Source: Synechococcales cyanobacterium VAR_4_metabat_354
GTDB lineage: Bacteria; Cyanobacteriota; Cyanobacteriia; Cyanobacteriales; Chamaesiphonaceae
Direction of reading: 5' to 3'
DNA: 64,000 nucleotides
NCBI GenBank assembly: GCA_031414775.1
Contig: JANOQI010000016.1
Coordinates: 224,001 to 288,000 of the forward strand
The position numbers and the translations under genes were made by a program. Below, one piece after another: positions 16,384 to 20,328 of this stretch. The notes under the pieces are model-generated. The model was not told the DNA's origin and made no database searches. It saw only the letters and a program-made list of their open reading frames with translations. The stretch's first letter is position 1; the number at the start of each line of letters is the position of its first letter.

Positions 16384-17286
16384 TTAGTCAAAACCGAGTA
16401 GGTCAAAAATCTCGCGATCTTTGAGTGGTTCTACCGACAAAGGCTTCACATCATCCAGCATTCCTTTGGCCAATTTCAGATATTCTTGCTGAACTTCTAG
16501 TACTTCCGGGTCAGGGTCCATTTCAAAGACAGTACATTTTTTCAACCGACTGCGGCGAATGGCATCTACTGTGCGGAAATGCGCCAAGGTTTTTAGACCC
16601 ACCCGATCGTTGAATTTATCAATTTGATCGGTGCCTTCACTGCGATTGGCAATAATACCACCCAGCCGGACCCGATAGTTTTTAGCTTTAGACTGAATGG
16701 CTGCCACGATCCGATTCATGGCAAAAATCGAGTCGAAGTCGTTGGCAGTAACAATTAAACAATAATGTGCATGTTGTAAAGGAGCAGCAAAACCACCACA
16801 AACTACATCGCCCAATACATCGAAAATCACCACATCAGTATCTTCGAGTAGATGGTGTTCTTTGAGGAGTTTGACTGTTTGCCCGGTGACATAGCCGCCG
16901 CAACCGGTACCAGCGGGTGGCCCCCCCGCCTCGATGCACATTACACCGTTGTAGCCTTCAAACATAAAGTCGTTAGGCTGAAGTTCTTCGGAATGAAAAT
17001 CAACAGTCTCCAAGATATCGATGACCGTGGGCACCATCTTTTTGGTGAGGGTGAAGGTACTGTCATGCTTGGGATCGCAACCAATTTGCAATACGCGCTT
17101 GCCCAAGTGGGAGAATGCTGCCGACAAATTAGAAGAAGTGGTGGATTTGCCAATGCCGCCTTTTCCATAGACCGCGATCACCAAAGCCCCTTCGATATTC
17201 ATACCAGGGTCTTGATGTACCTGAAGACTGCCTTCGCCATCTTCGCACTTAGTAATTGATGGGGGATGAGCGTTGGAAACTACCAT
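16384..17286 (-). CDS. chlL: Light-independent protochlorophyllide reductase (DPOR) Fe-S ATP-binding subunit L
   Basis: [43 protein letters not shown]-terminal DGEGSLQV extension. Confidence 0.97.
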
Positions 17287-17311
17287 AATAAAATCCTATA
17301 TAAAATTTAAG

Positions 17312-19003
17312 TTACTTACCGATCTGGGCTTTAGCGTCGTAAAGAGTCTCGGATGTGATCGAAGTAATGCCGCGATCGATCGCAAATTTTTCGGTATTGC
17401 GTTTGACTTTACCTCGGACAAAGAAGGGGATTTTGTTCAACTCCGCTTCACCATCGGCGCTCCAAGTTACTGTCCCTGGAGTATCCGGGGGAGCTTCGAT
17501 AGTTAAAACTGCTTGATTAGAGCCTGCTGTGGCGGTCGCGACTGGTGATCGATCGACAGCATTGCTAACGACTACTTCCCGATCAGAGTGGTGAGTGGGG
17601 GCACTATGTAAATGGCTCATATGTCCTTCGCCGAACTCAAAATCTTCCCGGAACATTCCGATCAGATGTTCTTCCAGACCCATCATCAGCGGATGCACCC
17701 AGTCATCAAAGATCACGTTGGCACCTTCCCAACCCATTTGGGGGGAATACCGAGCGGGGACGTCTTGAACGTGAATCGGAGCCGAAATGACTGCGCAAGG
17801 GATGCCCAGACGTTTGGAAATATGACGTTCCATCTGAGTGCCCAAAACTAGTTCGGGAGCAGACTCGGCAACTTTGGCTTCCACGGCCAAATAATCGTCA
17901 CTAATCACCGCTTCGATGCCATGCTTTTTAGCAACCTCCCGTACTTCTCTGGCAAATTCGCGGCTATAGGTACCAATCCCCACCAGTGTAAATCCTAACT
18001 CTTCGGTAGCCATCCGCGCTGCCGCCAGCACATGGGTGGCATCACCAAAGATAAACACCCGCTTGCCAGTGAGATAAGTGGAGTCCACCGATTTCGAGTA
18101 CCAAGGCAACCGGGAAGCCTGCGCGGGAGCTGCTGATGACAACCGCGCAGCACCCCAACTACCGAGGGTGTCAGCTTGCGACAGGTCCAATGCGGCGCTG
18201 ACATCGATACCAGCGACCTGACCAATTTCAGCAATAAAGTCACGAGTGGCACCGACTCCAATGGGCACTGTCTTGACGGTGGGTTGACCGAAGCTGCGGG
18301 TCAGCCAAGTACAAGTAGTAAGTGCAATTTCGGGATAGAGACAGATATTAAAGTCGGCATCGGGAATTCGTTTTAAGTCGTCGGGTGTCGATCCCAGCGG
18401 CGCGATGACGTTTACATCTACACCGATCTCCGCCAACAACTTAATTACTTCCTGAATATCATCCCGACAGCGAAAACCTAAAGCGGTAGGGCCAATAATG
18501 TTGGCTTTGGGGCGAATGCTGGGATCGCGCGGTGGGCGGGGTGTATTGGGCGCGGGCACCACTGGCAACAACAAAGCCCGAACTAGATGATAGAGGGTTT
18601 CGCTAGCCCCCCAATTTTCTTTTTTGGAATAAGCCGGTAGTTCTAGACTGACCACCGGGATCGGCAATCCCATACTCTTGGCCAGTGATCCGGGTTGATC
18701 TTGAATGAGTTCGGCGGTGCAGCTTTCACCCACCAACATTACCTGTGGCTGAAAGCGATCATAGGCATCGCGCACCGATGCTTTGACCATCTCGGCGGTA
18801 TCACCACCCAAATCGCGGGCTTGAAAGGTGGTGTAAGTTACCGGCGGACGGCGATCACGACGCTCGATCATTGTAAACAATAGATCAGCGTAAGTATCGC
18901 CTTGAGGGGCATGAAGCACATAATGCACTCCTTCCATCGCCGTCGCAATCCGCATTGCTCCTACATGGGGCGGGCCTTCGTAAGTCCACAGGGTTAATTC
19001 CAT
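17312..19003 (-). CDS. chlB: DPOR subunit B
   Basis: [28 protein letters not shown] (cluster-ligating Asp), C-terminal [25 protein letters not shown] domain. Confidence 0.97.
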
Positions 19004-19047
19004 AATTCCTGATGAGTTGGTGATGAGTAAAGCTAAAAAATTTAATC

Positions 19048-20328
19048 CTAAATAGTCAATCGTTTCCGTCTTTCTAAGGGTCGTGCGAACAATTCGGCGA
19101 GGTCAGCCGCTTGGTCGTAGCCCTGAATTGGCGAAAAAACCAGTTCGATCGACCATTTGGTGGCCATCCCTTCTGCCTCTAGAGGATTGGCTAGTCCCAA
19201 ACCACAGACGGTGATGTCTGGTCTAGCTGCCCGACAGCGATCCAGCTGTTTTTCCACGTCTTGACCTTCTGATAGAGCCGTACCCGCTGGCAAGAGAGCG
19301 ATTTCGCTATCCATTAACATTCGATCAATATAAGGCATTCCGACTTCGACTAGTTCCATGCCACATTCTCTAGACAAAAAACGAGCTAACGGAATTTCTA
19401 ATTGCGAATCAGGAAATAGAAATGCTTTCCGACCACTAAGGGTTTTTTGGTAGCGTTCTAGTCCAATCTGGGCGCGGTTAACGGCGGGGGCGATCGCCGC
19501 TGCAAAGACTGTCTCATCTATATTCCAGGCATTAGCAGCTGTACGTAACCAGGCTGTCGTACCTTCGATCCCCAAGGGATAAGGTGATGGTAAAAGTGTG
19601 GCACCGCGTTGAATAAGCGATCGAACGGTTTCGCTCAAGAAAGGCTGGGCGAGCAGTAACTTGGTTCCTTTGCCAATGGGTGGCAGATTGGCAGCGCGGC
19701 GCGGTGGAAAGAAATAAACCGGCCCAATGCCCATTTTGTCGAATAGGCGTTGGAACTGGTCTTCCACCACATCGGCCAAGCTCCCCACCACCATCAGACC
19801 CGGTTCGTCATTGCTGCTGGGTAAAACGGGTATCATCGATCCCAAACAAGCATCTTCACCCTGAGTAAAGGTCGTTTCAATGCCACTGCCCGAATAATTG
19901 AGCACCCGTACTTTGGGAAAGAAGCGCTGACCAAGGCGTTCTGCCGCTTTGGCTAGATCTAGTTTGATCACCTCGGAGGGGCATGATCCCACCAAAAAGA
20001 GAGTGCCAATATCGGGGCGACGCTCTAGCAGCTGATTAACCACCCGATCAAGTTCTTCGTTGGCATCAACCAGGCCAGCGAGATCTCGCTCACCCAGAAT
20101 AGCTGTCCCAAACCGGGGTTCAGCAAAAATCATGACCCCAGCCGCTGACTGAATCAGATGGGCGCAGGTGCGGGAACCTACGACTAAAAAGAAAGCATCC
20201 TGCATTTTGCGATGGAGCCAAACGATTCCCGTTAGGCCGCAAAATACCTCTCTTTGTCCGCGTTCTTTAAGTACCGCAGTAACAGTGTTAGTTTGATTAG
20301 GAACTTCCGTGCAAGGCTCTACAGCCAT
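19048..20328 (-). CDS. chlN: DPOR subunit N
   Basis: Three cluster cysteines in VFCGL, SRTCAH and [27 protein letters not shown]. Confidence 0.97.

Follow-up and report, generated by a model that had tools for sequence, protein, structure and literature searches.

A chlN-chlB-chlL operon at positions 16384 to 20328 of a 64,000-nucleotide stretch of cyanobacterial DNA (termed the window here) encodes the three subunits of a dark-operative protochlorophyllide reductase (DPOR) of the proteobacterial type. The window spans positions 224,001 to 288,000 of contig JANOQI010000016.1 from Synechococcales cyanobacterium VAR_4_metabat_354 (assembly GCA_031414775.1). Outside the picocyanobacteria, operons of the same clade (the beta clade) are carried in sum by about 95 species-level genomes. 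It is very probable that the whole native DPOR complex was replaced by a foreign N-B-L cassette that moves in one piece. This recurrent replacement among beta-cyanobacteria is apparently undescribed so far; the chemistry is that of an ordinary DPOR.

The operon and its three subunits

The operon comprises three genes:

16384..17286, minus strand: chlL, DPOR L-protein with a BchL-type N-terminal extension, 300 aa (TIGR01281)
17312..19003, minus strand: chlB, DPOR NB-protein subunit B with a C-terminal PCP_red domain, 563 aa (TIGR01278)
19048..20328, minus strand: chlN, DPOR NB-protein subunit N of the proteobacterial type, 426 aa (TIGR01279)

The genes are separated by 44 bp (chlN/chlB) and 25 bp (chlB/chlL). 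All three open reading frames (ORFs) are intact and exceed the curated cut-offs of their DPOR models: ChlN scores 498.5 bits (cut-off 419.95), ChlB 604 bits (490) and ChlL 437.5 bits (345). Against NF002790, ChlB reaches 890 bits, slightly below the cut-off of 912, and PF08369 matches its residues 514-558. The ligand positions C30, C55 and C116 of ChlN are in place, as are D36, C95, D307 and H437/M441 of ChlB in an alignment to PDB chains. ChlL has a P-loop at 41, C129, C163, DFD at 183 and DGEGSLQVH at 16-24. This means that the contiguous operon described in the initial annotation, its Fe-S ligands (ChlN C30/C55/C116, ChlB D36, ChlL C129/C163), the quoted ChlB start, the ChlL extension and the ChlL end are as claimed. 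The letters quoted as the ChlN start do occur in ChlN, but at residues 22-32 and not at the N-terminus.

With cluster ligands, P-loop, DFD patch and proton-donor Asp all present in three subunits above their cut-offs, the operon would be expressed as a working DPOR. D307 of ChlB is the putative proton donor, a role taken from the alignment; the residue roles used here follow passages of two papers (PMC7948495, PMC4500134) and general background on the family. As judged from the conserved ligands, the ChlL dimer would bind ATP and hand electrons from its [4Fe-4S] cluster to the cluster of (ChlN-ChlB)2, which would reduce the C17=C18 bond of protochlorophyllide. For the family, this chemistry is described as established (PMC4500134, in part).

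The best solved relative of all three subunits is 2YNM, given as the DPOR of Prochlorococcus marinus in the section consulted of PMC7948495, followed by Rhodobacter-type chains. For ChlN and ChlB, the 2XDQ chains are far behind (ChlN: 599 bits with 2YNM chain C vs 252 bits with 2XDQ chain A). Like canonical cyanobacterial and plastid ChlL, ChlN and ChlB (2XDQ), the window proteins share reaction, fold family and cluster ligands. Unlike these, they are distant in sequence: ChlN is 33-35% and ChlB 31-34% identical to the canonical proteins of relatives, and ChlL about 55%. Furthermore, chlLN and chlB are unlinked in canonical relatives, whereas all three genes are linked in the window. Canonical ChlL lacks the N-terminal flap and the two canonical ChlB aligned lack the His/Met pair; the window has both. 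Accordingly, none of the canonical features (chlL-chlN linked with chlB apart, a ChlB starting MKLAYWMY, a flapless ChlL) was found in the operon. The His/Met pair of Rhodobacter BchB, reported as a di-copper site in part of PMC12022308, aligns with ChlB H437/M441.

Within the beta clade, GEGSxQV is present in 33 of 37 ChlL and xEGSxQV in all 37. All four Dolichospermum-type ChlL (L044, L045, L046, L288) have ESEGS instead of DGEGS. A Cys two residues ahead of the motif occurs in the host-family, Pseudanabaena and Dolichospermum copies.

Host genome and distribution of the cassette

The host genome (3.56 Mb, 64 contigs, 99.96% complete) belongs to a freshwater, Chamaesiphon-related beta-cyanobacterium. 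In the RpoB tree it is distant from the picocyanobacterial row, and the nearest named matches of its GltX are from Chamaesiphon (75-77%). The possibility that the host is itself a picocyanobacterium, which the initial annotation had kept in view, is thereby dismissed. A search for CsoS2 yielded no match, but the control gave no signal either. The host has an rbcL-ORF-rbcS arrangement that we take to be rbcL-rbcX-rbcS.

Light-dependent protochlorophyllide reductase (LPOR) is present in the host genome. A second DPOR copy was not found by tblastn, nor was a native chlL, chlN or chlB remnant by tblastn (E<=1) and blastn with the canonical genes of two close relatives as queries. Thus, the N-B-L set of the window is the only DPOR of the host and, of the two options left by the initial annotation, it replaces the native enzyme rather than supplementing it.

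In the host family, 33 of 39 genomes searched with ChlN gave a match, 6 of the window type (85-100%) and 27 canonical. The six carriers form two host clades in the RpoB tree, four in the genus of the host (support 100) and two in a sister genus (98); in the order of the host, 6 of 401 genomes are carriers. A GTDB scan revealed 19 non-picocyanobacterial carriers at 78-87% among the best 80 of 592 matches, assigned to Pseudanabaena, Phormidesmis, Dolichospermum, Nostocales and unclassified bins. Pseudanabaena carries the cassette in 45 of 45 matched genomes (48 searched), the other Pseudanabaenales genera in 1 of 14 (order sample of 71 genomes). There are 39 carriers among 140 matched genomes (151 searched) in the order of Phormidesmis priestleyi and 3 among 20 genomes of Dolichospermum. 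Further carriers known from named proteins are Anabaena sp. 90, D. flos-aquae, D. lemmermannii and D. circinale. In a phylum sample, the foreign type was found in 2 of 147 matched non-picocyanobacteria and in 33 of 33 picocyanobacteria, with the picocyanobacterial family label being our own assignment, based on genome size and tree position. The N-B-L order is kept in the 19 named carriers and at the host-family loci wherever the contig is long enough; the flanks vary.

Two loci are unusual. In a Pseudanabaenales metagenome-assembled genome (MAG), the foreign chlB (L042:2378-4066) contains an in-frame TAA. In G228, a 420-aa ORF (L288:9795-11057), presumably an IS200/IS605 TnpB, is inserted between foreign chlN and chlB, both of which are intact.

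Phylogeny of the cassette

A three-gene tree (N+B+L, LG+C20 with posterior mean site frequencies) was computed from 28 rows after 11 of 39 had been dropped; it is unrooted and drawn from an alphaproteobacterial row. A quick N+B tree with 52 of 82 rows agrees with it. The protein trees exclude L042, whose chlB has a stop, and L149, whose chlN is located elsewhere. Sampling covered 23 of 401 proteobacterial genomes plus three named plasmids and 6 of 201 genomes of Gemmatimonadota; Myxococcota were not sampled. Support is given split by split, as printed labels can move on re-rooting.

In the three-gene tree, the beta clade and the picocyanobacterial clade are each supported at 100/100. Together with three Gemmatimonadales rows they are joined at 100/99, within proteobacterial and other Gemmatimonadota rows. 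In a separate tree, the canonical outgroup is set off by a very long branch. The window proteins do not branch with canonical cyanobacterial ChlLNB, and they carry the BchL-type N-terminal motif. The initial annotation had called the operon picocyanobacterial or purple-bacterial in type. The proteobacterial (BchNBL) part of this assignment stands; the picocyanobacterial part does not, as the window falls into a separate clade and a grouping of window and picocyanobacteria is rejected by the approximately unbiased (AU) test (p=4e-5); the sub-cut-off NF002790 score of ChlB points the same way. With Pseudanabaena and Dolichospermum, the window proteins share 86-95% identity, with picocyanobacteria 59-71% (N, B). 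The nearest non-cyanobacterial relatives, Gemmatimonadales or proteobacterial, reach 73-74% for N, 67-69% for B and 82-83% for L. With a Gemmatimonadales BchB as query, its own relatives come first and the beta clade directly after.

No order among beta clade, picocyanobacteria and Gemmatimonadales is clearly favoured, and there may have been one or two entries into cyanobacteria. Beta clade and Gemmatimonadales group at 55/30 in the three-gene tree and at 62/0.997 in another one. The three possible orders have AU values of 0.29, 0.42 and 0.12; a sister grouping of beta clade and picocyanobacteria obtains p-AU of 0.29 and 0.64 and is 4.67 log-likelihood units better under C20. The shared N-B-L order is not decisive, since a Pseudomonadota genome has it also: in G694 (L281:5529-9940), bchN, bchB and bchL are adjacent, with no bchH in between.

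The cassette probably descends from a bchFNBHLM cluster of a phototroph related to Gemmatimonadota or Gammaproteobacteria, which would have been trimmed to a self-contained N-B-L set, with the beta-cyanobacterial clade apart from the picocyanobacterial one. At the window locus, a bchF-N-B-H-L-M order is not present: N-B-L stands alone between unrelated flanks. The host has no bchF-like gene, and its ChlH and ChlM are 39% and 30% identical to proteobacterial queries. Hence, unlike in the photosynthesis cluster of Gemmatimonadales and Proteobacteria, the cassette lacks bchF, bchH and bchM and resides alone in an oxygenic, LPOR-bearing host.

Loss of the native genes

A genome with both DPOR sets intact was not found. 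Canonical ChlB was absent at E<=1e-20 from all 19 named carriers, and intact native ChlB from the carriers in the surveys of Pseudanabaenales, the Phormidesmis order and the genus Dolichospermum. The three Dolichospermum carriers still display scars: in all of them, the ORF in the middle of the native chlL-ORF-chlN locus persists, with the genes on either side broken. In G051, chlL is in pieces that contain stops, and in chlN the segment for residues 1-83 is fused to that for 126-180. Left in G053 are the 3'-terminal 75 codons of chlL, the two ends of chlN and the final third of chlB. In G228, chlL is reduced to its 3'-terminal 41 codons and chlB to its 3'-terminal 116; over these 116 aa, the chlB remnant matches a canonical relative at 100% identity. 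No native chlL remnants were detected in G001, G003, G007, G013 and G079, and no native chlN remnants in G013, G079, G047 and G056. Replacement in place was considered and rejected: in the host, the genes that adjoin the native loci of relatives lie on contigs other than that of the cassette or at a great distance from it, and in Dolichospermum the cassette occupies a different site from the native genes.

Movement between cyanobacteria

In the RpoB tree, the carriers fall into seven separate host lineages among canonical relatives; in Dolichospermum, the canonical genome G163 is only 0.001 away from carrier G053. A tree built from the DNA of 38 operons places Dolichospermum inside Pseudanabaena (SH-aLRT 99); adjoining these two are the genus of the host and its sister genus, each as a branch of its own. 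Between Dolichospermum and P. minima, the operon dS (synonymous divergence) is about 1.0, as within Pseudanabaena (0.9-1.0), while rpoB dS is saturated and rpoB dN (nonsynonymous divergence) is 0.143 vs 0.008 within Pseudanabaena. The cassette has thus passed from Pseudanabaena to Dolichospermum. This nesting and the scars of the native genes show that the cassette is transferred among cyanobacteria and takes the place of the native enzyme.

Between window and Pseudanabaena, DPOR dN is 0.03-0.09 vs an rpoB dN of 0.16. Within the host genus, by contrast, chlN/chlB dN is several-fold above rpoB dN. Operon dS in the subclade of the host (0.3-1.7) follows rpoB dS (0.35-0.95), which means that descent there was vertical. 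The proximate donor of the host's copy was likely another beta-cyanobacterium. According to the scheme proposed here, the subclade of the host (4 genomes) would have obtained the cassette from a Pseudanabaena-related cyanobacterium, followed by vertical descent and amelioration. The cassette has probably moved several times between cyanobacteria, with every recipient ending without native genes. Since the genes for all three interacting subunits fit into 3.9 kb, in contrast to the unlinked native chlLN and chlB, a single transfer gives a complete enzyme. The assimilated horizontal transfer postulated in the initial annotation is borne out, with a proteobacterial-type DPOR having entered a non-picocyanobacterial host; a one-off event is not supported.

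A Dolichospermum-type operon was also observed in a Pseudanabaena-labelled MAG (L045:1488-5908). It is 98.4% identical over 4.4 kb to L044:4268-8706, with identical chlN and chlB and a chlL dS of 0.15. The best match of its downstream flank is Pseudanabaena, but only at about 70%. Either back-transfer or misbinning would account for this operon.

Adaptation to the host genome

The initial annotation had based its argument against contamination on host-type palindromes at three positions. All three are confirmed (12 bp long at 17372, TCGATCGA at 19145, GCGATCGC at 19490), but the top palindrome of the host is not the highly iterated palindrome HIP1. It is the HIP1 derivative TCGATCGA, with 1979 copies or 13x expected; HIP1 ranks behind with 655 copies (7x expected). 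HIP1 is not host-specific because the operons of all 32 other carriers examined contain it too, in 3-6 copies each. The diagnostic palindrome is TCGATCGA: each of the 6 host-family operons contains two copies, and none of the 32 others contains any. One of the sites is shared:

19145..19152, no strand: TCGATCGA palindrome in chlN, identical aligned site in all six host-family carriers

Common descent or convergence may account for this common site. As top palindrome, TCGATCGA has been reported for Chamaesiphon minutus and Geminocystis (PMC4390886, in part). The three genes contain 7 CGATCG (10.0 expected at host coding density), 2 TCGATCGA (2.3) and 1 GCGATCGC (0.8). Compared with 1699 long ORFs of the host, their GC content at third codon positions lies between the 52nd and 82nd percentile and their codon index between the 18th and 76th, so that codon use is in the host range. 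The operon is ameliorated to host composition. With a dN/dS of 0.00-0.07 in every pair with finite dS, it is also under purifying selection in the host.

GTCGAC was found only once in the host genome vs 520 copies expected, and GAGCTC, CCGCGG and GGGCCC are at 2-4% of expectation. The near-absence of several palindromic 6-mers suggests many restriction systems.

Alternative explanations and possible causes of the spread

Contamination, misbinning or misassembly of the locus is refuted by independent genomes and can be regarded as practically impossible. Although the host genome is in 64 contigs, its sequence occurs in sediment metagenomes and the runs spanning the locus may be its own source, a single 348-kb contig encloses the operon and also bears host rpoB. 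One 30-kb contig covers 13500-23500 without differences in two of four runs, and in a separate study a contig of a relative runs across the junction on the chlL side (15739-17007). Moreover, three sister genomes have the operon, and elsewhere it is on chromosome-scale contigs (L036, L040, G228). On this point the initial annotation was right. The direct source that it implied, a picocyanobacterium or purple bacterium, is, in contrast, refuted for the immediate donor and highly improbable. Gene order and signatures are indeed those of picocyanobacteria, and the sister grouping of both clades is not rejected. Against it stand the rejected clade of window and picocyanobacteria, the strongly supported beta clade with its high identities among beta-cyanobacteria, and the lack of bchF together with the low ChlH and ChlM identities. 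For the origin of the whole beta clade, such a source is possible. Even less credible, and refuted by the incongruence described above, is an ancient paralogy, with both DPOR types in early cyanobacteria and differential loss thereafter. That carriers occur in much of the Phormidesmis order and in Pseudanabaenales, which branch deeply, would fit it, but operon divergence is far below host distances, Dolichospermum operons nest in Pseudanabaena, the beta clade is inside the proteobacterial/Gemmatimonadota radiation, and both types were found together in no genome.

Several observations weigh against replacement by a mobile cassette. Since the host has no native remnants, replacement there rests on its relatives, and as many carriers are MAGs, gene absence weighs less in them. 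The host-family copies branch beside, not within, the sampled Pseudanabaena copies, at an open fork, which makes a Pseudanabaena-related donor no more than likely. By host standards, chlN and chlB are also rich in total GC (92nd and 98th percentile). As to a vehicle, phages gave no ChlB match, and 10 of 10 ChlB matches on plasmids were proteobacterial. Finally, in the Dolichospermum genus, G143 has only stop-containing chlL and chlB pieces, with neither a chlN match nor a foreign copy found, and in G447 (L362:5866-6730) the native chlL is split between frames. These broken genes imply that loss can precede gain: in this genus, the native DPOR may be undergoing decay with nothing taking its place, or assembly errors may be involved.

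Two causes of the spread can be envisaged. The replacement may be neutral, a ratchet of loss and rescue: LPOR would make the native DPOR dispensable at times, so that it decays, and the one-piece N-B-L cassette would be the easiest way to regain it, while the split native genes would seldom be re-acquired together. No biochemical advantage is required. We give this scenario nearly even chances. G143 and G447 fit it, as do five photosynthetic-class genomes of the phylum sample without a ChlB match at 1e-40, the lack of any genome with both sets intact and the presence of LPOR in the host. But G143 is in 530 contigs, the break in G447 is possibly a sequencing error, and the perfectly conserved chlB remnant of G228 indicates a recent loss, compatible with gain first. 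An adaptive sweep, which adds a cause to the replacement, appears somewhat doubtful. Here, the foreign enzyme would beat the native one in oxic, low-light cells and the native genes would decay after the invasion, possibly because the BchL-type flap covers the cluster of the L-protein and thereby reduces damage by oxygen or misdirected electron transfer. The switch occurred in the same direction in at least 7 host lineages, is fixed in a whole genus, and xEGSxQV is kept in 37 of 37 ChlL. The Rhodobacter BchL flap is reported to mask the cluster and to autoinhibit, with ChlL having no flap (PMC7948495, in part). Besides the flap, the beta clade has preserved the His/Met pair of BchB. In two Dolichospermum carriers, operon dS (0.10-0.18) is below rpoB dS (0.49), which suggests spread after speciation. 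However, oxygen protection by the flap is only proposed in what was accessible of 10.1101/840439, the motif is changed in the four Dolichospermum-type ChlL, carriers are rare in the order of the host, and linkage in one piece could by itself bias transfer.

A broader version is unlikely: a second, still-mobile foreign DPOR would be sweeping beta-cyanobacteria owing to better function of the capped L-protein cluster in oxic, dim habitats, both it and the picocyanobacterial enzyme would derive from Gemmatimonadota and not from Proteobacteria proper, and one clade might be the stepping stone for the other. If the sweep is real, all Pseudanabaena and much of the Phormidesmis group have been captured, and bloom-forming Dolichospermum is now being entered.

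Relation to known systems

The closest parallel is the picocyanobacterial DPOR (Prochlorococcus/Synechococcus/Cyanobium ChlNBL, 2YNM), which has the same N-B-L order and BchL-type motif and has likewise replaced the native enzyme by a proteobacterial-type one. This transfer is known, with only marine Synechococcus and Prochlorococcus named in the portions consulted (PMC3595025, PMC7842958). Unlike it, the beta clade is separate, resides in beta-cyanobacteria, has variable neighbourhoods and is still moving between genera; its distribution is patchy, whereas picocyanobacteria are uniform.

In the sections available, ChlBLN are divided into alpha and beta clades (PMC6946739), the cyanobacterial BchN lineage is called apparently monophyletic with chlLN and chlB apart (PMC13025772), and P. 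marinus is named as the single exception with a flap (PMC7948495). The accessible parts of six further sources do not mention the beta clade (PMC9600594, 10.64898/2026.01.15.699626, PMC7947762, PMC8227023, PMC4783071, 10.1101/2023.04.16.537069). No report of a DPOR swap in these beta-cyanobacterial lineages was found in the DPOR literature, with subscription journals mostly outside the search. An earlier remark on the clade in a tree or supplement is quite possible, if not to be expected, as the genomes have been public for years.

The about 95 genomes break the rule, as it appears in the literature consulted, that alpha-cyanobacteria have a foreign and beta-cyanobacteria a native DPOR. A core photosynthetic enzyme complex has been swapped repeatedly between oxygenic phototrophs, and the native genes have left scars that can be seen today. 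Natural pairs are offered by close relatives that have a native, a foreign or no DPOR, like those in Dolichospermum with near-identical RpoB. They allow one to ask why picocyanobacteria kept the proteobacterial-type enzyme, a question that cannot be asked within picocyanobacteria because all of them have the foreign type. In addition, marker surveys with chlL, bchL or bchN may misassign these cyanobacteria.

Flanks of the operon

Two features border the operon:

16338..16383, minus strand: long inverted repeat directly after the chlL stop, likely bidirectional terminator
20329..20534, minus strand: intergenic region upstream of chlN with a presumed promoter, one HIP1 at 20414

The consensus terminator scan did not pick up the inverted repeat. 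The RNA fold of 16330-16390 has -26.5 kcal/mol (z = -8.0), with 0 of 200 shuffles equally stable, and the structure likely acts as a bidirectional terminator. Upstream of chlN, the promoter scan gave a sigma70-like match at 20560-20532 that is not above chance (2 found, 5.1 expected).

The upstream neighbours of the operon are the same in G001 and, two genes further, in G003. Immediately upstream of chlN, a 190-aa ORF (20535-21107) with a weak, sub-cut-off acyl-carrier-like N-terminus is found, which is also present in G001 and not in G003. In G001, part of the chlL 3' end occurs a second time about 600 bp downstream of the operon (L144:1679-1897, 72 aa, 99% identical). In the window, a divergent aldehyde-dehydrogenase-like ORF (556 aa, weak matches), a DUF6972 ORF and an unassigned 93-aa ORF converge towards the chlL hairpin (14049-16324). 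Further away, a 292-aa ORF at 25912-26790 is presumably an insertion sequence transposase, and a low-GC stretch (0.355) extends over 6001-8000.

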